The notes under the pieces: model-generated | Databases searched by the model: none | Seen by the model: the letters and a program-made list of their open reading frames with translations, nothing else | Told to the model about the DNA's origin: nothing | From: a virus | Lineage: Duplodnaviria > Heunggongvirae > Uroviricota > Caudoviricetes | Length of the DNA: 41,351 nt | Strand: one strand, 5' to 3' | Virus record (IMG/VR): IMGVR_UViG_2541047933_000011 | Made by a program: the position numbers and the translations under genes | Shown: piece after piece, positions 1-29,448 of the stretch | Layout: each line of letters opens with the position of its first letter | Position numbering within the stretch: the stretch's first letter is position 1

Positions 1-516
1 ATGAAATTTAAAAAATGTCTTCTGCCTGTGGCAATGTTAGCGTCATTCACTCTGGCAGGATGCCAGTCAAATGCTGATGATCATGCCGCCGATGTTTATC
101 AAACCGATCAACTGAATACCAAACAAGAAACTAAAACCGTTAATATTATTTCCATTCTTCCCGCAAAAGTTGCCGTAGACAACGCCCAAAATAAACGGAA
201 CGCACAAGCCTTCGGCGCGCTTATTGGCGCTGTCGCTGGCGGTGTTATCGGCCACAACGTCGGGTCTGGCAGCAATTCCGGAACGACGGCAGGTGCAGTT
301 GGCGGCGGAGCTGTAGGCGCGGCAGCGGGTTCTATGGTGAATGATAAAACCTTAGTGGAAGGTGTTTCTTTAACATATAAGGAAGGCACCAAAGTGTATA
401 CCTCCACCCAGGTGGGTAAAGAGTGCCAGTTTACGACAGGTTTAGCCGTTGTTATTACCACGACGTATAACGAAACGCGTATTCAGCCAAATACCAAATG
501 TCCTGAAAAGAGCTAA
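1..516 (+). CDS. SlyB/Pcp-like glycine-zipper outer-membrane lipoprotein (probable host flank)
   Basis: ATG at 1; lipoprotein signal with lipobox LAGC; Gly/Ala zipper GALIGAVAGGVIGHNVGSG resembling SlyB family (recalled, not searched). Confidence 0.55.
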   Translation: MKFKKCLLPVAMLASFTLAGCQSNADDHAADVYQTDQLNTKQETKTVNIISILPAKVAVDNAQNKRNAQAFGALIGAVAGGVIGHNVGSGSNSGTTAGAVGGGAVGAAAGSMVNDKTLVEGVSLTYKEGTKVYTSTQVGKECQFTTGLAVVITTTYNETRIQPNTKCPEKS

Positions 517-7735: not shown

Positions 7736-7752
7736 ATTACCTTAAAGGTAAT
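7736..7752. promoter_or_regulatory. operator-like palindrome ATTACC-ttaaa-GGTAAT (perfect)
   Basis: exact inverted repeat 20 bp upstream of ATG 7716 (minus strand). Confidence 0.6.
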
Positions 7753-7800: not shown

Positions 7801-7830
7801 TTGATTTTAATATTTCTTCGCGTTTATCAT
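7801..7830 (+). promoter_or_regulatory. candidate sigma70 promoter (TTGATT-18-TATCAT) overlapped by operator
   Basis: -35 at 7801-7806, -10 at 7825-7830; operator 7829..7845 overlaps -10 and start region. Confidence 0.4.
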
Positions 7831-7845
7831 TACCTTTGCGGTAAA
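7829..7845. promoter_or_regulatory. operator-like palindrome ATTACC-tttgc-GGTAAa
   Basis: core TTACC-N5-GGTAA exact. Confidence 0.55.
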
Positions 7846-8111
7846 TTTACATCGCACTCCTCTTGTGCCATAGTAATCGGGCACTGGCAAAATCCAGTGC
7901 CGGGATTGGTCTCCCGGATTACTACAGAGGCACATATGCCGCATAAGCGGTTTTTTTATGTGTAAAGCGCACCTATTCTATGGTGGGCTGTGTGGGGGCA
8001 CCGAAAGGTGCGCCGGGTTCCTTTGTAGCCGGTAAGACCAACTCTGCACAGTTCACCACCATCTGATTGGTCTCAGCGGTGGTGATTAACCTAACTACAA
8101 AGGTGATCGCC
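7846..8111 (+). other. long structured non-coding leader upstream of Bro-N gene (possible attenuator or small RNA)
   Basis: about 265 nt without a credible ORF; hairpins at 7872-7897 and 7996-8011 (GAAA loop); CCGC-ataa-GCGG plus T7 at 7938-7957. Confidence 0.3.
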
Positions 8112-8804
8112 ATGAATACCAAACCTTCCATCTTTTCCTTTGAGTCATCCTGCCAGATCCGTATGTTCATGATTGACGGAGAACCTTGGTTTGTCACCAA
8201 AGATGTGTGCAATGCTTTGAATATTGATGTTACACAAGCGAGAAAACTTGATAAAAAAGGCTGGAACAAAAAGGGGCTGTATTCAATACAGACCCCTGGT
8301 GGAATACAAGAACTATCCATCGTTTCAGAATCAGGTCTCTACATCCTTATTCTGCGTTGCAAAGAGGCAATGACTGAGGGAACGAGAGCATTCAGATTTC
8401 TTGAATGGGTTACAGGTGAGGTTCTTCCTCAGATCCGCCGCACCGGAAGTTACATTAAAAACTCGCTCCCGCAGGAAGAACGCATAAAGATGGTTGCCGA
8501 CCAGGTAGCCAACGCCACAGCATCAGCAGTGATGCAGGCAATGAAGATAGAGAACAAAACCTACAGTGCCCCACTGAAGCCCGGCTACCGCAGCCTGATT
8601 CATTCTCCGTCTGGTGTTCTCGGCCTGACGGAGAACTCATTGCTTATGAATCTGCTAAACCAGTTACAGGAAGACGGGCACGACGTATCGGGCGCGGCGG
8701 CGGAGCTGACCACCATGTTCTGCTACATCGTCGGTGTGAGCAAATGCCTGCGTGATATCCAGACCCACGCGGAGTACATCAACGACAAGGCAGGGTTCTT
8801 CTGA
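8112..8804 (+). CDS. Bro-N domain antirepressor-like protein
   Basis: ATG 8112 with AGGTGA RBS; N-terminal FMIDGEPWFVTKDVCNALNI Bro-N motif; C-terminal domain paralogous to 6709..6966. Confidence 0.75.
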   Translation: MNTKPSIFSFESSCQIRMFMIDGEPWFVTKDVCNALNIDVTQARKLDKKGWNKKGLYSIQTPGGIQELSIVSESGLYILILRCKEAMTEGTRAFRFLEWVTGEVLPQIRRTGSYIKNSLPQEERIKMVADQVANATASAVMQAMKIENKTYSAPLKPGYRSLIHSPSGVLGLTENSLLMNLLNQLQEDGHDVSGAAAELTTMFCYIVGVSKCLRDIQTHAEYINDKAGFF

Positions 8805-22032: not shown

Positions 22033-23025
22033 TTACACCACGCGGGCTTCTGTTTCCAGAAGCGCATCAGTTTCACGGATTGGTACACCACGGAATGAAG
22101 TCCACCACTCGCCTTCTGTCTCTTTTACGCTGATAGCCAGAGATGTTTTCTCCAGAGACTGCAGATCAAGAGCCTGGCCTACAGTGCGGTTCATGTAGAA
22201 CACCGGGCGGCCCATGCCACGGTTTGGAATGCGATGTAGTGCTTTAACCATCAACTTCGCAATATTTGCGGCAGAGGATGGTTCTGAAAGATTGCTGACA
22301 TCGATGTTTGCAATGCGAACAACATAACGCCAGTCACGCAGAGCAAGTCCGTTGTCCCATTTGTAATGGGTACGGTAGCCTTCGTACTTGCCGCCATTAG
22401 CATCTTCCAGTGTCACCTGGCCTTTATCTTCCATCTGGATGCCAGCCTTCTGCCCTTTCGGGAAGATGCCATGCACGGTGTTTTCGCCCCACACCACTAA
22501 CCAGATTGAGGTGTTATCTGTACCCGTGCCACCAGCATCAATGATGTTCTGAGCATTACCCGCAGACAGGCTGGAATAGCGGGAGGACAGTCCCATAAAC
22601 TGCTGAGGGTTAACGCTGGAATCACCATAAAACAGCGTCTGCGCCATCTGCTGATTCATCGCTTCAATAAATGCGCGGTCTTCAGACAGGCGGAATTCGG
22701 CGGTATTGCCGTTCAGATCAGCCAGTGACTTATCGACTTCCGCATAGGTTTCCAGCATGCCAACGGAATCGGTTACCTGCACTGTGGTTGATTTGCTTGG
22801 CTGTACGCCATAGTTCAGCAAACGCCAGGTAGCTGAAGGTAAACCAGAACGAATGGTGGTTCGGTGTCCGGTAGGAAGGTTCCCTTCGACAAAAGGCATA
22901 TCCTGAAGGATCGGGTTAGTTTGACCGAGAAGCTCGATAATCTTATCGACTTTCCCGTTTGGATCGACGCGCTTACCCCAGTCAGCCAGCGTCAGCGCAG
23001 TTAAGCCTTTAACAGCCATTGTCAT
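22033..23025 (-). CDS. major capsid protein (by position and size)
   Basis: 330 aa immediately downstream of scaffold-like gene; start may be ATG 23019. Confidence 0.6.
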   Translation of the reverse strand: MTMAVKGLTALTLADWGKRVDPNGKVDKIIELLGQTNPILQDMPFVEGNLPTGHRTTIRSGLPSATWRLLNYGVQPSKSTTVQVTDSVGMLETYAEVDKSLADLNGNTAEFRLSEDRAFIEAMNQQMAQTLFYGDSSVNPQQFMGLSSRYSSLSAGNAQNIIDAGGTGTDNTSIWLVVWGENTVHGIFPKGQKAGIQMEDKGQVTLEDANGGKYEGYRTHYKWDNGLALRDWRYVVRIANIDVSNLSEPSSAANIAKLMVKALHRIPNRGMGRPVFYMNRTVGQALDLQSLEKTSLAISVKETEGEWWTSFRGVPIRETDALLETEARVV

Positions 23026-23731: not shown

Positions 23732-24028
23732 TCACTCCTGTTCACTGGCCTCTTTGGCCATCTTCAAATACTGTTCAGGGCAATGCGCCATAACGCGCTG
23801 AAACAGTTCCAGCGCCAGATTGCGTTGCCCCTCATTAAATGCCATTGCCATAGCGTCCATCGGTGAGATAGCGGAAAACACACGGCCTTTCTCCAGCACC
23901 GACCAGACAACGCGACGCCCCTGTTCACTGCTCATGACAAAGCGAATGTCATCAATTTCACGCTGCGCCATGTCACGTTGCTTACGGGCGTTTTCTTCTT
24001 TCAGTTGATCGTCTTCGTAATCTGTCAT
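23732..24028 (-). CDS. small protein between portal and scaffold genes
   Basis: 98 aa; start overlaps portal stop. Confidence 0.5.
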   Translation of the reverse strand: MTDYEDDQLKEENARKQRDMAQREIDDIRFVMSSEQGRRVVWSVLEKGRVFSAISPMDAMAMAFNEGQRNLALELFQRVMAHCPEQYLKMAKEASEQE

Positions 24029-25704
24029 TGTGATTGCCCACCCTGACCACTAACTGCATTCGCCATAGCTGACAAAACACTCGGATCCGAAGTTTTAGCT
24101 TCACTTAGCGTCTTGGCACCCTGTGCCGCCGCCATCCCCATCGCCATCATTTGTTGCTGCTGTTGTTGCTGTGCCCGTTGCTGGCGAGCCTGCTCAACCT
24201 GTTCCTGCGGAACAATGACGGTTGGAGACACTCCGGACATATCAGCGAATGCATCGATCGCCTGATCAACGTTGAGTTTGTCGAGAGCTTCTGGTTTCGC
24301 TTGCGCAAGTTGACCAATGAAGTTAACCGTGGACGCCAGACTGGACAGGCCGATAGACTTCTGCGCCTGAGCCATGACGGAAATGTATTCGACCTTCAGG
24401 GGCATGCCTTCCATCGCGTCAGGCGGTGGCGGCAGCATGTTTTTACGCACCATCATCGAGAAAGAGCGATCAATGAGAGGATTAAGACATTCGTCGTTCA
24501 GGCGCTCCAGAACCGGCCCCAACATCAGAAGTTTTTCTTCTTTCATTTCGATCACCGCTTCCACAGGCATCGAGCGGGTATTGATGTTCTGCAACATCAT
24601 GAACAGATCGACAAAGTAGGCGCTGTTAATGATTTGACGAGTGTCCTGAATGTCTGCCACCAAATCTGCTGTACTGGGGTTAACCAGATAAGCAGGCCTG
24701 AAACCATCCTGACCAGTAATCTGATCGATATACGTGATGTCGCCAGGAAGAAGGGAGGCGCGCTGATTCTTGAGGGAAGTCGGAGCAACCATCGGCGGAT
24801 TGGTGGCTTTATCAATCAACTGCGACTTGCGCTTCTGGAGAAGCTGCAATGCCTTAACAGGTCCAAGCGCCAGCATACCCGGGCATGATGATCCATAAAC
24901 ATCTTCGCCGTTAACTTCCCAGCGCGGAGCCATAATTGGAAACTCATCGAATCCGGACTCACGCAACAACTTGTCGTTATCGCCACCAACCTCGTAATAA
25001 ACCGATTTGAATGGCTTGTTCTTGCTATCCAGCTTCGATGTATCGCGGTCAATGTTCGGGTAAACCGAATGCATCACTTCAATCCACTTCTCGTAGGTGC
25101 CGCTTTCCCACATGCTTTTTACGGATTCGCTGACGTTATTTAGCCCGAACTCCTGAACAAGCTGACGAACAGTCATAGAGAACTTGCGAAAACAGGTGTC
25201 CACACTGCCACGAGGTGAGTTAGCCAGGTAGTAACTGCCTATCGGGAATGGCATTGTGCGAATGATGTCCTCGTCATCCTCCAGCACCGCCATTGCACCA
25301 GTGCTGTATGTGCCGAGGCTTCCGTATAACTGCGGAAGAGACTGGTAGAGATTCGACTTATTGAACATATCGTTCATGCGGTTCTGCACCGCCTCGAGCC
25401 ACAACTTAACAGGACCATAATCCATCATTTCAGGATCTGGCGTAGCCAGGCGAAACCACGGACGCGCAGGGCTTGTGATGCCTGACATCATGCCGCTGGC
25501 GAGAGTGCGCGCCGCCATAGTCCCGGTCGAATCAATAATGCGTGTATTGCGTCGATCGTTACGGTTGACTTCAGAAGTCAGAAAGCGGGAACCACGCGGG
25601 TTGATGTAATCACTCAACTCGCGCCAGTGCGGCTCGAACGACTGACGCTCGCTTTCAAGTTGTGCGAACTGTTTGTTCAATCGCTCTTTAGTTGTTTCCG
25701 CCAT
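24025..25704 (-). CDS. portal (head-to-tail connector), T7 gp8-like
   Basis: 559 aa; GGAG RBS; Gln/Met/Ala-rich C-terminus (QQQQQQQMMAMGMAAAQGA) resembling T7 gp8 C-terminus (recalled). Confidence 0.8.
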   Translation of the reverse strand: MAETTKERLNKQFAQLESERQSFEPHWRELSDYINPRGSRFLTSEVNRNDRRNTRIIDSTGTMAARTLASGMMSGITSPARPWFRLATPDPEMMDYGPVKLWLEAVQNRMNDMFNKSNLYQSLPQLYGSLGTYSTGAMAVLEDDEDIIRTMPFPIGSYYLANSPRGSVDTCFRKFSMTVRQLVQEFGLNNVSESVKSMWESGTYEKWIEVMHSVYPNIDRDTSKLDSKNKPFKSVYYEVGGDNDKLLRESGFDEFPIMAPRWEVNGEDVYGSSCPGMLALGPVKALQLLQKRKSQLIDKATNPPMVAPTSLKNQRASLLPGDITYIDQITGQDGFRPAYLVNPSTADLVADIQDTRQIINSAYFVDLFMMLQNINTRSMPVEAVIEMKEEKLLMLGPVLERLNDECLNPLIDRSFSMMVRKNMLPPPPDAMEGMPLKVEYISVMAQAQKSIGLSSLASTVNFIGQLAQAKPEALDKLNVDQAIDAFADMSGVSPTVIVPQEQVEQARQQRAQQQQQQQMMAMGMAAAQGAKTLSEAKTSDPSVLSAMANAVSGQGGQSQ

Positions 25705-25718
25705 TTCAATGACTCCGG

Positions 25719-25925
25719 TTACTGACCAAGCAGCGTTTTACCGCTGGTATTAGCGGTTGATGTGTCGCCCTGAGAACCGGTAAGCAGCGTAGAACTACGA
25801 CCAGCAGCAGCGCGACGGCGACGTGTTTCTTCGTCGCGGGCATCAACAACGGCGGCATCCTGCTCCTGTGGTGCTGCCTGAACTTCTGGTGTTGCAGGCA
25901 CTGATGGTGAGCTACCCATGCACAT
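25719..25925 (-). CDS. small protein preceding portal
   Basis: 68 aa; GGAG RBS 8 nt before ATG 25925; preferred over overlapping frame 25706..25945. Confidence 0.4.
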   Translation of the reverse strand: MCMGSSPSVPATPEVQAAPQEQDAAVVDARDEETRRRRAAAGRSSTLLTGSQGDTSTANTSGKTLLGQ

Positions 25926-26014
25926 ATCAATGACTCCGTACGCAATTAAATTATTACCAATTTAACCACATATGATTTATTTATCGTAGAAGGTTGACAT
26001 TTAACGCGTTAATT

Positions 26015-26031
26015 ATTACCTTTCAGGTAAC
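26015..26031. promoter_or_regulatory. operator-like palindrome ATTACC-tttca-GGTAAc
   Basis: core exact; 90 bp upstream of ATG 25925. Confidence 0.55.
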
Positions 26032-26352
26032 CAAAGGGCTCATTCTGGTTACTAACCTGACTGGCTTGTCGTTAAATTAAACAGGTGGAGTGAGCTTTTA
26101 TTTTGAGCAGTACGGCGTATGGCACATGCGCCGATAGCGGTCTGGATACGTTTAAGGGGCACCCTCCCTTGCTCGGGCAAACGAACCAGGTAGCCGGAAT
26201 GTGCAAGTCGAGCGGTTTTATTCCGCGCACGGGGATTCACCATCCCGGCGATTCGGTGTGACGCCTCGGAAGAGACGAGGGTACAACGATGAGAGCATTT
26301 ATGGAGCCGCGACAAAGTGTGGCGCCTTAACAGGCTAAGTGCTCTCAGCGTT

Positions 26353-26429
26353 GTGGCATTAGCTCAGTTGGACAGAGCAACCGCCTTCTAAGCGGTTGGT
26401 CGCAGGTTCGAATCCTGCATGCCACGCCA
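26353..26429 (+). tRNA. tRNA-Arg (anticodon UCU), phage-encoded
   Basis: 77 nt; acceptor stem GTGGCAT/ATGCCAC; D-arm GCTCAGTTGGACAGAGC; anticodon stem ACCGC/GCGGT with loop CTTCTAA; T-arm GCAGGTTCGAATCCTGC; 3' GCCA. Confidence 0.85.
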
Positions 26430-26472
26430 GAATCACGCCTAAGGACCGTGATGCCAGAAGTTCCAGGTGCTT

Positions 26473-26516
26473 GGCGGTGATAGTTTCCCTTGAAGGACTA
26501 TCACCGCCCTTTTTAC
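26473..26516 (+). terminator. rho-independent terminator after tRNA
   Basis: 12-bp stem GGCGGTGATAGT/ACTATCACCGCC followed by CTTTTT. Confidence 0.65.
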
Positions 26517-26627
26517 AGCAGGACGCCATTGCGATGACTTCATGCTGTAAACCCGTACAGCCACGGAAGGCATAACTCATTGCTTCCAGTTCGCCCGGTT
26601 CGCCGGGCATTTTTTTAAGGTGAGATT

Positions 26628-27002
26628 ATGAACGACCAGCAAATCGAAAAAGAAATCGTTGAGAAAGGCAAAACCGCTCCGCGTGTAACACCCGAGAAAA
26701 TTGAAGGCCTCATTTGCAGTGAGCATTTTTTCACTGCTGCGCAGGGTGACCACCAGGCTAAAGAAGATGACCTTATTTATAATCCGGAGCCTTATGTCGA
26801 AGCCACCCCTGATGCTCTGCACCTTCTCACTTTCTGCGTATTGGTACTGAAGAATGGCTTCACCGTTACCGGAGAGAGTGCCTGTGCAAGCCCGGAAAAC
26901 TTTGATGCAGAAATTGGTCGGAAGATTGCCCGGCAGAATGCTGTAAACAAAATCTGGATGCTCGAAGGTTACTTGCTGAAGCAGAAGTTAAGCGAGCAAT
27001 AA
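26628..27002 (+). CDS. Gp49-like (N4 gp49 / Sf6 gp66 family) protein
   Basis: 124 aa; AAGGTGA RBS; motif LTFCVLVLKNGFTVTGESAC recalled as typical of this family. Confidence 0.55.
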   Translation: MNDQQIEKEIVEKGKTAPRVTPEKIEGLICSEHFFTAAQGDHQAKEDDLIYNPEPYVEATPDALHLLTFCVLVLKNGFTVTGESACASPENFDAEIGRKIARQNAVNKIWMLEGYLLKQKLSEQ

Positions 27003-27019
27003 CACCGTGACATGTCACA
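26999..27019. repeat. direct repeat copy 1: ATAACACC-GTGACATGTCACA (12-bp perfect palindrome)
   Basis: shares 21 of 21 non-indel positions with 29447..29470; at the terL-distal boundary of the terminase block. Confidence 0.7.
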
Positions 27020-27022
27020 AAC

Positions 27023-27050
27023 AGCCAGCCGATGAGCTGGCTTTGTTTTA
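27023..27050 (+). terminator. terminator-like hairpin after gp49-like gene
   Basis: AGCCAGC-cgatga-GCTGGCT followed by TTGTTTTA. Confidence 0.5.
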
Positions 27051-27092
27051 TCCTCACCAGAGGATATCAGCAGTATTATCCCCACCAGCGGA

Positions 27093-28568
27093 TTAAGCAT
27101 AAGGGTCATAATCCGTTATGGCCCTTCCCTGCTGGCTTTGCTGTCCAGGTATATTTATGCGTTTCGAGACCGGGAAAGCAAACGTCAGCAGTAGCGCATC
27201 GCCTTTACCAGGAGAACGCCCAAGTCGCTCTTTGATATCTTCCTTCGGTTCGATAACGATTTTACCGTCCACTCGAACTTTGTACTCTGCCGCCGACAGG
27301 TCGTCTGCTGTTTCCTGGTCATCCAGCATGCCGCCCAGCCTCAGCCATGTCTTGCATGAATTGAACATCTCCCCACGCTTGTTGAGCATCTGCGGGTCAG
27401 TAGACGCGCCACCGAACGGAACAAGTTGCCATGTACGACCCCAGCCGTCACCGATTGACTTCAAACCGGTTCCGTAACCGAAGTCGATGAACACCGCGTC
27501 AGCCTGATACTGGTCTTCAAAGTCAGCGATACGCTTCGCCATAATCAGATCGTCGGTAGTCTTGTTGCCAGTCCACAGCACCTTACTGTGTAGCCCCTGC
27601 CGCAGGTATATCACAGCGTCATCAACGCCGGAGTATGCCGGGTCAACGCCGATTATCACCGGAGCATGTGCAACCTGCGCAGCGGTTACCACCCGTTTCA
27701 TTGCCTCGTCAGTAAGACCGGTAGGGATAAACTGCAATTCAGATGCATCAGGGAATATGCCACGCACACGGATTTTAACGAAGTCGCTGTCTTCCCCGTA
27801 GTCATCAACCCATTTCTGCAACTGCTGTTTGTTAGTGCCTTCCACCGTCCGGCTGTCAATCTGCGCAGTTTTCCAGCGGTGTTTATATTTGCGGAAACAT
27901 TCGCGAAAACGCCCGGTGTTACGTGTAGGGTTTCCGAACGCCACCCAGATAATCTCAGTGTCTTCGTCCGTAAGCGCACCCTCGGCAACTTCCCACACCA
28001 GATCCGCAATGTTCGACGCTTCATCAAACACCACGATGATGCGTTTGCGCTCGTTGTGTAGTCCGGCGAATGCCTCGGTGTTGTGCTCAGACCAGGGTAT
28101 TGCGTCAGCCCGCCACCGCTTGTCGTGCCCTAGGTCATTGCTGTACATCGCGGTAGCGGTACAGGTAAACCAGTCTTTCGTGATAGCAAGGTTCGACCAC
28201 TTGATAATTTCCGGCCAGGTCTTCGTTCGTAGCTGGTTGTCGGTGTTGGCGGTCACCACGACCTTACAATCCTCGCAAGTGGACATGCCCCAGTTGATCA
28301 GCATTGAGATGAATGCGGATTTACCAATACCGTGACCAGAAGCGCGTGCCAGCATAAGCGGCTGATAGCGCGTCTCTGGATTCTGCAGGTGATCACGTAT
28401 CTCTCGGAACGCATCAGCCTGCCACTGACGTGGGCCGGTGGCATGTGCCAGTTCAGTCCCCTCTTCCCCCCATGGGAACGCATAGAGGGCATAGCCAAGC
28501 GGATCGTGAGTGAACCCTGCAATATCCTCGATTAACTGCTCTTCAGGAGATAACGCTGTATCTGTCAC
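27093..28568 (-). CDS. terminase large subunit
   Basis: 491 aa; Walker A ARASGHGIGKS; GTG start overlapping terS stop (GTGA). Confidence 0.85.
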   Translation of the reverse strand: MTDTALSPEEQLIEDIAGFTHDPLGYALYAFPWGEEGTELAHATGPRQWQADAFREIRDHLQNPETRYQPLMLARASGHGIGKSAFISMLINWGMSTCEDCKVVVTANTDNQLRTKTWPEIIKWSNLAITKDWFTCTATAMYSNDLGHDKRWRADAIPWSEHNTEAFAGLHNERKRIIVVFDEASNIADLVWEVAEGALTDEDTEIIWVAFGNPTRNTGRFRECFRKYKHRWKTAQIDSRTVEGTNKQQLQKWVDDYGEDSDFVKIRVRGIFPDASELQFIPTGLTDEAMKRVVTAAQVAHAPVIIGVDPAYSGVDDAVIYLRQGLHSKVLWTGNKTTDDLIMAKRIADFEDQYQADAVFIDFGYGTGLKSIGDGWGRTWQLVPFGGASTDPQMLNKRGEMFNSCKTWLRLGGMLDDQETADDLSAAEYKVRVDGKIVIEPKEDIKERLGRSPGKGDALLLTFAFPVSKRINIPGQQSQQGRAITDYDPYA

Positions 28569-29161
28569 TGATTGCCATCCTGACGTTCTTTCAGTCTCTT
28601 CCTGGCTGCCGCTATGCGATCAGCAATTGTCACATTCACATTAACATCCAGGCGTTCTTTGAATGCGTTGACGTCGACGTGCTTACCAATCAGTTCGAGG
28701 TTCTTCACCTTGTCAGGCCATTTAATTTTTTTGAGGATTGTCTCTATCGAATCCTCGTTCATGTTCATGATGGTCGATGACAGATCAAAGCCACTAAGCG
28801 TAGTGCGCCAGATTTTCGGCCACTCGCGGATTGGCTTAAGGCTCCCATCGTCGTTGAGGATGTCGATCACGTCCATCTGGTCGATCTCCACCAGGCGCAT
28901 GAGAACGTAATCAGCACTGACGCGCATTCGTTTGTTGCGCTCTTCCATCAGCTCGGCAATCCGTTTTTGAATGCGTTCATCGCGCATCATGAGACTGGCT
29001 TTAACTGCCGCTGTATTTGGGGAGAATCCTGCGTTAATCGCAGCCTGAGTCTGGTTTTCAGGCGTTTGGATGTATGACTGGCAATAAGCCTCCTGCATTG
29101 CTGTTAGTGGCTTAAATTGCGTTGATTTGCGTTTATAGGTTTTAGGTTCAGCAGGCATCAT
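28565..29161 (-). CDS. terminase small subunit
   Basis: about 199 aa from ATG 29161; HTH-like NQTQAAINAGFS; directly upstream of terL. Confidence 0.65.
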   Translation of the reverse strand: MMPAEPKTYKRKSTQFKPLTAMQEAYCQSYIQTPENQTQAAINAGFSPNTAAVKASLMMRDERIQKRIAELMEERNKRMRVSADYVLMRLVEIDQMDVIDILNDDGSLKPIREWPKIWRTTLSGFDLSSTIMNMNEDSIETILKKIKWPDKVKNLELIGKHVDVNAFKERLDVNVNVTIADRIAAARKRLKERQDGNQ

Positions 29162-29177
29162 AACCACCGTGGTAATA

Positions 29178-29194
29178 GTTACCGTTGTGGTAAT
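29178..29194. promoter_or_regulatory. operator-like palindrome gTTACC-gttgt-GGTAAt inside an 11-bp direct repeat (GTGGTAATAGT x2)
   Basis: core exact; 17 bp upstream of terS ATG. Confidence 0.55.
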
Positions 29195-29235
29195 AGTACC
29201 ATGCAAAATAAAGCCGCCATAGTTGGCGGCAGTAT

Positions 29236-29448
29236 TCAAAGTCCATCAAATTCATCGTAAAAACTCTCGTCAAGATACCCTTCCCATTTACCGCGAATGA
29301 AAATTACATCCTCGCCGCAAGGGTGCTGACTGTCGATAACTATATCCCTCCTGGCGCAACCATACTTATGCATGAGAAATTTAACCTCTTTCGGAAAATT
29401 TGCTGAGTTATCTCTCATATCTTCAAGGTCGTAGCGTATTTTTGGCAT
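29236..29448 (-). CDS. small protein upstream of terS
   Basis: 70 aa from ATG 29448 with AAGGTG RBS. Confidence 0.5.
   Translation of the reverse strand: MPKIRYDLEDMRDNSANFPKEVKFLMHKYGCARRDIVIDSQHPCGEDVIFIRGKWEGYLDESFYDEFDGL

Follow-up and report, generated by a model that had tools for sequence, protein, structure and literature searches.

A conserved structured RNA encloses a tRNA-Arg gene beside the late genes of a Uetakevirus-type prophage and recurs in lambdoid and P1-like phages

The locus

The 41,351-nucleotide (nt) stretch of DNA analyzed here (IMG/VR record IMGVR_UViG_2541047933_000011, called the window throughout) carries late phage genes on its minus strand and, between the gp3-like gene and terL, a tRNA-Arg(UCU) gene, terminator hairpins and a gp49-like gene on the opposite strand, together with a repressor operator and a stretch of ~300 base pairs (bp) that is poor in open reading frames (ORFs). 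All of these features, which had been listed by a first-pass annotation of the DNA, are present (Table 1). Judged by its sequence, the region is part of a prophage of the phiV10/epsilon15 type (genus Uetakevirus); BLAST places positions 25940-26360 at 100% identity to Escherichia coli IHE3034, APEC O18 and other genomes, and positions 25700-27100 at ~97% identity to phage phiV10 and its relatives.

The first-pass annotation had left 26052..26352 as an unexplained non-coding stretch. These seemingly empty 300 bp are not a spacer; they are the conserved core of a large structured RNA that encloses the tRNA. On the plus strand, positions 26113-26355 form five helices and one pseudoknot, the core measuring ~150-245 nt among relatives and the whole unit ~400-600 nt, and the sequence that had been called T-arm-like, and that had not yielded a full tRNA fold, is helix P3b, whose loop takes part in the pseudoknot.

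Fold and strand of the RNA core

In alignments of related loci, invariant blocks lie between hairpins whose sequence is swapped while the pairing stays. For example, RNAalifold found 45 pairs in an alignment of 18 full-length sequences, 16 of them with compensatory changes, and in the same alignment P5 has 17 pairs, 7 with such changes. When the proposed structure, including the pseudoknot, was scored on these 18 sequences, 99.3% of cells were paired, compared with 30-45% when the partners were slid; 17 pairs changed on both sides, and none of 500 shuffles attained any of these measures. A set of 102 distinct 5' domains gave 99.0% of cells paired against 30-45% in the slid-partner control, and the exchange of one pair for another can be read at individual positions: 26117:26129 is A-U in 52 sequences and G-C in 49, 26143:26188 is C-G in 90 and U-A in 12, 26267:26277 is C-G in 83 and G-C in 18, and the pseudoknot pair 26238:26258 is C-G in 95 and A-U in 6. 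Because compensatory changes keep 99% of the pairs, selection appears to act on the RNA fold itself. Two U-G pairs, 26118:26128 and 26141:26193, are retained in 101 of the 102 sequences, and because these near-invariant pairs would be A-C mismatches on the minus strand, the plus strand is the one that folds.

Folding of the whole unit (26105-26516) gave a z of -5.26, and none of 100 shuffles folded equally well, while single-sequence folding of 26040-26352 was uninformative (z -1.97 on the plus and -1.65 on the minus strand). A covariance model (R2) rebuilt on the covariation-supported structure scores the core at 131.9 bits. An automatic model (R1), taken from RNAalifold on alignment A5, was discarded; in it helix P1 was replaced by a pairing of two invariant segments, GGCACA/UGUGCA, that lacks covariation. 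A stem joining the 5' flank to bases before CAAC was likewise set aside as inconsistent across sequences on inspection of alignment A4.

No catalogued family accounts for the core. At the gathering threshold, Rfam returned only the tRNA, plus C4 and isrK elsewhere in the window, when the whole window and 17 related loci were searched, and over 26050..26450, the range that the first-pass annotation had proposed for Infernal and Rfam, only the tRNA passes and no family covers 26113-26352. A permissive scan of 25700-27200 with Rfam 15 (E <= 10) gave zero matches within 26113-26352; only the tRNA passed, all others had E >= 0.008 and fell far under their cutoffs, and the sole overlap with 26052-26352 was a 14-bit match to a long non-coding RNA at 26019-26107 on the minus strand, below its cutoff.

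The same annotation had found no credible ORF in this stretch, and this assessment holds. The sole sizeable ORF, on the minus strand, was rejected as a gene by both its indels and its substitutions: among relatives, 94 of 109 indel runs in it are not multiples of three, and its variable columns are split 36/35/28 over the codon positions, with no excess at the third. Other ORFs have been called opposite the RNA/tRNA unit, among them 26359-26610 on the minus strand of the window in addition to 26052-26315, PhiV10p04 of phiV10 and gp37 of mEp460; these ORFs overlap structured RNA or tRNA, and the hypothetical proteins assigned to them in some records are probably spurious. The description of the stretch as GC-rich stands in part, since its GC content is somewhat raised (55-60%, against 32-39% in the promoter region just upstream) but only modestly above that of the neighboring genes (~50-58%).

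Table 1. Features of the RNA unit and of its surroundings in the window
Feature	Coordinates	Strand	Remarks
Conserved RNA core (P1-P4)	26113..26280	+	Covariation
P1	26113-21/26125-33	+	Core helix
P2	26138-44/26187-96	+	Variable apical insert with UCCUUG-type motif
Single-stranded segment	26196-26207	+	GGAAUGUGCAAG; invariant
P3	26207-09/26247-49	+	Core helix
P3b	26232-35/26243-46	+	T-arm-like hairpin of the first-pass annotation, GGGGATTCACCATCCC at 26231-26246
Pseudoknot	26238-41 with 26255-58	+	P3b loop CACC pairs with GGUG 14 nt downstream
P4	26264-68/26276-80	+	Purine-rich GAAGAGA loop
P5, long hairpin	26282..26355	+	26282-26300 pairs with 26337-26355; variable insert inside; 3' strand ends GUUGUG
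tRNA-Arg(UCU), encoded CCA	26353..26429	+	ARAGORN (anticodon tct at position 35) and Rfam
P7 hairpin	26432..26452	+	AUCACG, loop CCUAAGGAC, CGUGAU; predicted structure, little covariation
Intrinsic terminator T1	26473..26514	+	Hairpin 26473-26508, GGCGGUGAUAG...CUAUCACCGCC, then CUUUUU; terminator scan
Conserved spacer and terminator T2	26515..26616	+	T2 26593-26616, hairpin 26593-26608; terminator scan
Putative sigma-70 promoter of the RNA unit	25994..26022	+	-35 TTGACA 25994-25999, 17-bp spacer, -10 TACCTT 26017-26022
Rep operator (putative, sequence-based)	26015..26031		Palindrome ATTACCTTTCAGGTAAC; the -10 hexamer lies inside it
5' leader, variable	26032..26112	+	Between operator and core; length and sequence differ among relatives
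ORF, 87 aa, TTG start	26052-26315	-	Only sizeable ORF in the 300-bp stretch
gp49/Sf6-gp66 family gene	26628-27002	+	Pfam PF13876 Phage_gp49_66; N4 gp49 / Sf6 gp66 family
Terminator hairpin	27023-27042	+	Separates the convergent gp49-like gene and terL; terminator scan; annotated terminator in phiV10
terS	28565-29239	-	Late gene
terL	27093-28568	-	Late gene
gp3-like gene	25719-25925	-	Late gene
Portal	24025-25704	-	PF12236, E 3e-187
Capsid	22033-23025	-	Late gene

The tRNA slot and the 3' part of the unit

The core joins the tRNA without a gap: the GUUGUG that ends the 3' strand of P5 reaches 3 nt into tRNA-Arg, and the junction GCTCT...CGTTGTGGCATTAG is identical in 12 of the 12 tRNA-bearing relatives in which it can be read. 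A true tRNA was found at this place in 17 of 118 distinct IMG/VR relatives, always Arg(UCU), and the slot it occupies holds in most relatives a tRNA-like domain, in which GUUGUGGU, after P5, pairs with ACCACAAC 80-250 nt downstream. The variable domain so enclosed has a 4-bp hairpin at the place of a D-arm and a hairpin that stacks on the closing stem as a T-arm does, and the closing stem itself is resembled by the acceptor stem of tRNA-Arg (GUGG...CCAC). After the 3' strand of this stem, ..CCACAA(A/C), CCA comes next in 25 of 78 cases, against ~1.6% expected by chance. Kissing loops (GCUGA/UCAGC) in the tRNA-like domain are complementary in most of 27 sequences, with one possible compensatory change, in P7, and are unproven. 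The GTTGTGG/CCACAAC repeats were also considered as integron attC-like sites; they misfit the attC core sequence, GTTRRRY, and the idea was rejected.

Beyond the slot, whether a tRNA or a tRNA-like domain fills it, helix P7 is conserved in Uetakevirus-type relatives and in several others, the pattern of its 5' strand matching 50 of 108 IMG/VR relatives; a likeness to the 3' end of 16S rRNA was dropped, as it is not conserved in the window. The first-pass annotation had given the tRNA its own strong terminator. The hairpin is present, but T1 belongs to the larger RNA unit because it is conserved, with a stem that covaries, and is found in lambdoid relatives without a tRNA. In the Salmonella relatives, the T1 loop repeats the P2-loop motif UCCCUUGAUGCU. 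It is likely that T1 forms the 3' end of most transcripts, as predicted, and T2 is possibly an alternative 3' end. T2 ends 12 nt before the start codon of the gp49-like gene, which must therefore be transcribed through it. The spacer and T2 are kept in Uetakevirus-type relatives, including two (L142 and L155) that lack a downstream gene; in both of these loci the core, slot, P7, T1, spacer and T2 are complete and are followed by the end of terL.

Several loci carry additional elements in this part of the unit. In the lambdoid relatives mEp460 (L088), cdtI (L089), L107, L108 and L111, a second conserved structure, AAAACAGAGAAGAGC...GUUCUUCUCUGUUUUGUGGAGAAAC, follows T1 and precedes the first early-left ORF, lying ~170-300 nt past the end of P5 in mEp460 and cdtI. 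Two P5 modules in tandem and/or two slots occur in L104 (Ca. Erwinia dacicola), L116 (Pseudescherichia vulneris), L155, L169 and L175; in its 3' half, therefore, the unit behaves as a modular array. In addition, phages P7 (L091 1408-2060) and P1 (L092 1108-1690) contain three P5-like modules and a tRNA-like domain closed by GUUGUGGUG/CACCACAAC, all between tRNA-Asn/Thr and the tci genes; in phage P7, ARAGORN calls a tRNA-Ser(UGA)-like gene there that is unannotated in the record.

Promoter and Rep operators

The putative sigma-70 promoter of the unit predicts a transcription start near 26029. Its layout, TTGAC(A/C)-17-TACCTT, is kept in Klebsiella, Salmonella and epsilon15 relatives, 66 of 119 scannable IMG/VR relatives have a TTGACN-16..18-TAnnnT pair no more than 200 nt ahead of the core, and a similar promoter is found directly ahead of helix P1 in several loci. 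In cdtI, for example, a TTGACA-16-CATAAT promoter and a palindromic operator are located ~40 nt upstream of the core. The leader between operator and core is ~80 nt long in the window and ~25 nt in SPN9TCW, and L096, L099 and L112 have almost none.

The palindrome that covers the -10 hexamer is one of many. The pattern ATTACC-N5-GGTAAT, with at most 2 mismatches, occurs 15 times in the window, compared with 1.17 occurrences expected, and none of 100 shuffles contained as many. The homologous site is annotated 'repressor' in the epsilon15 GenBank record, which places it on the gp3-portal side and lists further sites of this kind ahead of terS and of the tailspike gene and next to the repressor gene; the window thus contains, as expected of a Uetakevirus Rep operator, a 17-bp palindrome that recurs at regulatory regions. 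Site starts include 6617, 7736, 7829, 8876, 26015, 29160, 29178, 32980, 33042, 35366, 36077 and 36139, and the sites lie before terS, at the divergent region between the RNA and gp3, in the antirepressor region and in the immunity region, a scatter that resembles the many C1 operators of phage P1 and suggests direct repressor control of several operons. The first-pass annotation had expected a promoter for the portal operon near the operator at 26015; the operator is there, but the only recognizable sigma-70 pair points toward the RNA and tRNA, not toward the portal gene.

Distribution and genomic contexts

A sensitive BLAST search found window positions 26112-26352 to be ~82% identical to unannotated DNA of the lambdoid phages cdtI, mEp460, Stx2c phages, Ayreon and 2H10, and the 5' ~165 nt to be ~80% identical to DNA of P1, P7 and P1-like plasmids, while Klebsiella, Salmonella and Enterobacter relatives of epsilon15 are 70-75% identical over the stretch. 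With 25940-26360 as the query, which takes in the promoter region, BLAST finds matches in 1077 of 5426 complete E. coli genomes; 591 plasmid records match, and those inspected are P1-size replicons that, like phage P1, match the 5' domain only. An exact-word scan of one genome per species yielded 23 true loci in Kosakonia, Citrobacter, Kluyvera, Klebsiella, Phytobacter, Buttiauxella, Erwinia and others, and an exact-word scan of IMG/VR yielded 120 further relatives, 118 of them distinct. A search with the gp3-like protein returned 80 near-identical prophages, of no use for covariation. As far as seen, the family is confined to phages of Enterobacterales. Typical enterobacterial-type copies were also present in L113, a metagenome-assembled genome labelled Bacillota, and in L119, a phage from hospital sewage labelled Stenotrophomonas; contamination, mis-binning or a mis-assigned host could explain these two labels.

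The RNA is found in more than one genomic context. Among the 120 IMG/VR relatives, a cI-like repressor gene lies just upstream on the same strand in 59, the gp3/portal and/or terL neighborhood of the window recurs in 49, a DnaB-like gene is near in 5, and 7 have none of the scored markers. In the 59 cI-adjacent relatives, the RNA is predicted to be the first thing transcribed from the early-left promoter. In phages P1 and P7, the core begins 10 nt after tRNA-Ile and ends ~100 nt before ban, inside the C1-controlled ban operon, and the upstream tRNA-Ile could define its 5' end.

With the R2 model, the window and mEp460 each give one copy, HK022 gives none, and epsilon15 gives a remnant. A diverged second copy, analogous to the putR site of HK022, was sought in mEp460, the window, P1/P7, epsilon15 and HK022, and none was found. 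Epsilon15 keeps only helix P1 and part of P2 (L006 / L117 2660-2725, homologous to window 26113-26170): a deletion that joins two copies of the loop motif UUCCCUUGAUGCU, from the P2 loop and the T1 loop, has taken away most of the RNA and the tRNA, and the 'RNaseIII' feature of the epsilon15 record sits on what is left.

One subgroup has P1-P3 and the pseudoknot, lacks P4 and continues with a different 3' sequence, GGUGACAGCCCAGACGAUAUCUGAGUGGC (L130, L135, L136, L140, L159, L164, L165, L170, L200, L207, L208, L218, L229; also L099). From these loci, the minimal conserved unit may be ~150 nt.

The tRNA and codon usage

The well-formed 77-nt tRNA-Arg(UCU) of the first-pass annotation is corroborated by ARAGORN and by Rfam, where it scores 73.3 bits against RF00005 (cutoff 29). 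It is a paralog of host argU: the anticodon, D-arm, anticodon loop and T-arm are identical to those of K-12 argU, and the acceptor and anticodon stems differ by compensatory changes. What distinguishes the gene in the window from argU and from stand-alone phage tRNA-Arg(UCU) genes is that it is embedded in a larger conserved RNA. One 77-nt tRNA has been called by tRNAscan-SE in phage ZX5 (PMC9782041), and the 252 nt upstream of that tRNA are 100% identical to the window.

The proposal that the tRNA supports late translation survives in a different form. AGA (8.1 per 1000 codons) and AGG (6.3) together make up 14.3 per 1000 codons, or 23% of the arginine codons, in the window, a level several-fold above that of E. 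coli genes, but they are concentrated in the tailspike, injection and early genes and nearly absent from capsid, scaffold, portal and terL, the major head genes having 0-2. It is therefore reasonable that the tRNA supports translation for the phage as a whole, and not specifically of the head genes.

Neighboring genes and other RNAs in the window

The gp49-like gene reported next to the tRNA is borne out by its match to PF13876 (118.1 bits with a cutoff of 27, E 2.4e-34, profile positions 1-82 of 82). The slot it occupies varies among relatives, which have there a gp49-like gene, a gene for a DUF2829 protein, a gene for a protease-like protein, other small ORFs or none. The tRNA and gp49-like gene had been viewed as an insertion that splits the late operon between terL and portal. 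The arrangement is not recent, as the order gp3 / RNA / variable gene / terL is common to the whole group, being found in its Escherichia, Salmonella and Klebsiella members and in prophages of several other enterobacterial genera.

Elsewhere in the window, Rfam identifies an isrK RNA (74.7 bits) followed directly by a C4 antisense RNA (78.6 bits) at 7881-8063 on the plus strand. The pair is flanked by Rep operators (7736-7752 and 7829-7845) and by an ORF (8079-8804), in the layout of the P1 immI / antirepressor control region, and it is also present in the lambdoid phages mEp460 and cdtI, both of which carry the RNA described here.

A model for the unit and its alternatives

We tentatively favor, at a probability of about 0.45, a model in which positions ~26029-26514, possibly extending to 26616, are one early transcription unit for a composite structured RNA, the core of which would be released by tRNA processing and would act in trans. 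The sigma-70 promoter, its -10 hexamer covered by Rep, would fire upon inactivation of the prophage repressor or upon infection, producing a transcript of ~480 nt to T1, with some molecules reaching T2, that would contain in order the pseudoknotted core (P1-P4), P5, tRNA-Arg(UCU), helix P7 and T1. RNase P would cut at 26352/26353 and 3' trimming would stop at the encoded CCA, so that a functional tRNA able to read AGA/AGG codons would be freed, and the same processing would set the 3' end of a stable core RNA of ~240-320 nt. The tRNA, or the tRNA-like domain in relatives, would serve as a built-in processing signal, with the core RNA as the conserved product; in phage P1 the upstream tRNA would set the 5' end of the core. 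The core would act on a partner early in lytic growth, and the gene in the variable slot, here gp49-like, would be expressed at a low level by read-through of T1 and T2. A single early RNA gene is favored because the whole unit including the terminator is conserved, P5 abuts the tRNA exactly, CCA is enriched and stand-alone copies exist. A broader proposal, which is possible but which we hold to be doubtful, is that this is an uncatalogued RNA class common to lambdoid, P1-like and epsilon15-like phages, in which the core would be the first product of the derepressed early promoter, trimmed by host tRNA-processing enzymes, and would work as an RNA effector on the host before any phage protein is present, for example against a defense system or on the transcription or translation machinery.

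Several observations weigh against the model of a processed, trans-acting RNA. Phage P1 has only the 5' ~170 nt of the unit (P1-P4), directly before ban and with no terminator, and 59 of the 120 relatives carry the RNA as the leader of their early-left operon; these arrangements suit action in cis at least as well as in trans. Epsilon15 is viable even though the tRNA and most of the RNA are missing from it, and the unit can therefore be dispensed with, at least under laboratory conditions. Stand-alone units are few, as only 2 of 40 Uetakevirus-type relatives are without a downstream gene, and these could be recent deletions. The position at which transcription starts, the site of RNase P cleavage and the 3' terminus of the unit are predictions, and the -10 hexamer TACCTT is weak, matching the consensus at 3 of 6 bases, for which reason a generic promoter scan missed it. 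Lastly, most relatives were gathered by an exact word of 19-23 nt from the segment that separates P2 and P3, and the invariance of this word is therefore circular in part; relatives found by BLAST carry the word too, and the most divergent of them, Kp4866-6, keeps GGAAUGUGCAAG and has an extra compensatory change in P2.

The main rival to the model, which we judge rather unlikely, holds that the core is a put-like processive antiterminator that acts in cis, binding the elongating polymerase and carrying it through T1, T2 and later terminators, which in lambdoid relatives would allow read-through of the whole early-left operon. One or two terminator-like hairpins separate the RNA from the first gene in lambdoid and Uetakevirus contexts alike, as such a role would predict; mEp460 has a Q-like protein and no annotated N homolog, and the first early-left ORF matches only PHROG families of unknown function; and the P1 copy consists of the core alone, right before ban. 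The GAAGAGA loop of P4 and the UGCUCU(U/C) of the P5 3' strand resemble boxB and boxA, respectively, but the boxA-like bases are paired inside P5. The location of the core just downstream of a repressor-controlled early-left promoter in 59 of 120 relatives is that of putL (PMC9378689), and like put in HK022 the RNA is a cis-encoded structured element found right after the early-left promoter, ahead of terminators, in lambdoid phages without an annotated N. However, put is ~70 nt long with two stem-loops (PMC9378689) and is present in HK022 as two copies, putL on the left and putR on the right, whereas the RNA described here has five helices, a pseudoknot and a tRNA slot, is present once per genome with no copy in the rightward operon of mEp460, and also stands alone. 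The two are not detectably related, as HK022 has no match to the profile or to the covariance model. Antitermination would also leave the tRNA or tRNA-like slot without a role, and it sits poorly with the conservation of T1 and its loop motif within the unit, with the two loci (L155 and L142) that keep the whole unit and have nothing downstream to express, and with the fact that processive read-through in the window would enter terL antisense.

The remaining explanations are less probable still. That the core is a sensor, either a riboswitch or a leader that binds a protein or a tRNA, tuning transcription past T1/T2 at the lysis-lysogeny decision, would agree with its compact pseudoknotted fold, its invariant unpaired segments and its position as a 5' leader followed by terminators, and a switch-like three-part layout is suggested by the GUUGU at the base of P5, which can pair either with the upstream (R)CAAC or with the downstream CCACAAC. 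This idea is improbable, as the distance from core to T1 ranges from ~120 to >400 nt with different cargo, which speaks against a simple platform for alternative pairing, the neighboring genes differ by context and give no clue to a ligand, stand-alone copies exist and the P1 copy has no terminator. A functionless stretch, either a long tRNA leader or what is left of a decaying phage tRNA array, retained as a passenger of tRNA-Arg, could account for the P5-like modules and tRNA-like domains between true tRNAs in phages P1 and P7, the T-arm-like fragments in some inserts and the loss of the unit in epsilon15. This we consider very improbable, given that most relatives keep the core without any tRNA, that 99% of pairs are kept by compensatory changes over 102 distinct sequences from at least three unrelated phage types, and that the slid-partner controls speak against covariation as an artifact of alignment. 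Scarcely credible is a signal on the minus strand, whether the 87-aa ORF, which is listed in the window and has similar annotated ORFs in mEp460 and phiV10, or an RNase III site in the late terL-to-portal transcript, as the 'RNaseIII' feature at the homologous place in the epsilon15 record could imply: the indel frames and the lack of third-position bias argue against coding, the U-G pairs would be lost on that strand, the element lies on the cI / early-left strand in lambdoid relatives, and the epsilon15 feature covers the deletion remnant only.

Comparison with known RNAs

GOLLD and ROOL, which like the RNA reported here are phage- or prophage-encoded, highly structured and pseudoknotted RNAs of a function that is not known with tRNAs near or inside them, are among its nearest known counterparts. 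In GOLLD, a conserved part, which is 3', is accompanied by a linker that varies and in some cases includes phage tRNAs, and the RNA is made in lytic growth; both RNAs are encoded near tRNA islands (PMC12286853). Self-assembly into multimeric cages marks the two families. The new RNA is likewise tied to tRNA genes, with tRNA-Arg embedded in the window and tRNA-Ile preceding the core in phages P1 and P7. The GOLLD and ROOL models gave zero matches at the gathering score in the window and the 17 related loci, and zero at E <= 10 in 25700-27200. The new RNA is smaller, has its conserved part at the 5' rather than the 3' side, is limited to Enterobacterales as far as seen and lies behind a repressor-controlled early promoter.

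Other RNAs share single aspects of the proposed processing. In eukaryotes, the tRNA-like element of MALAT1-mascRNA recruits RNase P to form the 3' end of a long non-coding RNA; here too the 3' end of a conserved structured RNA is directly followed by a tRNA or by a tRNA-like domain that has an acceptor stem and, in many cases, N-CCA, but the two are unrelated, processing in the phage case is a proposal, and the element in the window is a genuine decoding tRNA. The C4 RNA of phages P1 and P7 and the CI RNA of phage P4 are antisense regulators of ~77-90 nt with known targets, cut by RNase P from longer early transcripts and present in Rfam. They are small phage RNAs excised by tRNA-processing enzymes, and a C4 RNA gene is also found in the window (7976-8063); the new core has no similarity to either that Rfam could detect at E <= 10 in 25700-27200.

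Searches of full-text literature turned up no account of the RNA, although an earlier one may exist. In the records inspected, the stretch is unannotated save for doubtful opposite-strand ORFs in a few and the 'RNaseIII' feature of epsilon15. The tRNA, the gp49-like gene and the operator were already known, while the family of RNAs, the way it folds and the placement of the tRNA within it appear to be new.

Biological significance

Few phages have been studied more than P1, the lambdoid phages and the epsilon15 group, and yet this stretch of their genomes is largely unannotated in the records inspected. For annotation, the "tRNA terminator" is to be reassigned to the larger unit and the 'RNaseIII site' of epsilon15 to be read as the deletion remnant of an RNA. 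Since the fold is defined by covariation, it can be tested directly with point mutants. If the tRNA is both cargo and processing signal within a larger RNA, this would explain the placement of phage tRNA genes such as this one. If the RNA proves to be an early effector or a new kind of antiterminator, it would add an RNA layer to the classic early program of temperate phages, with a reach of about a fifth of complete E. coli genomes and the P1-type plasmids.

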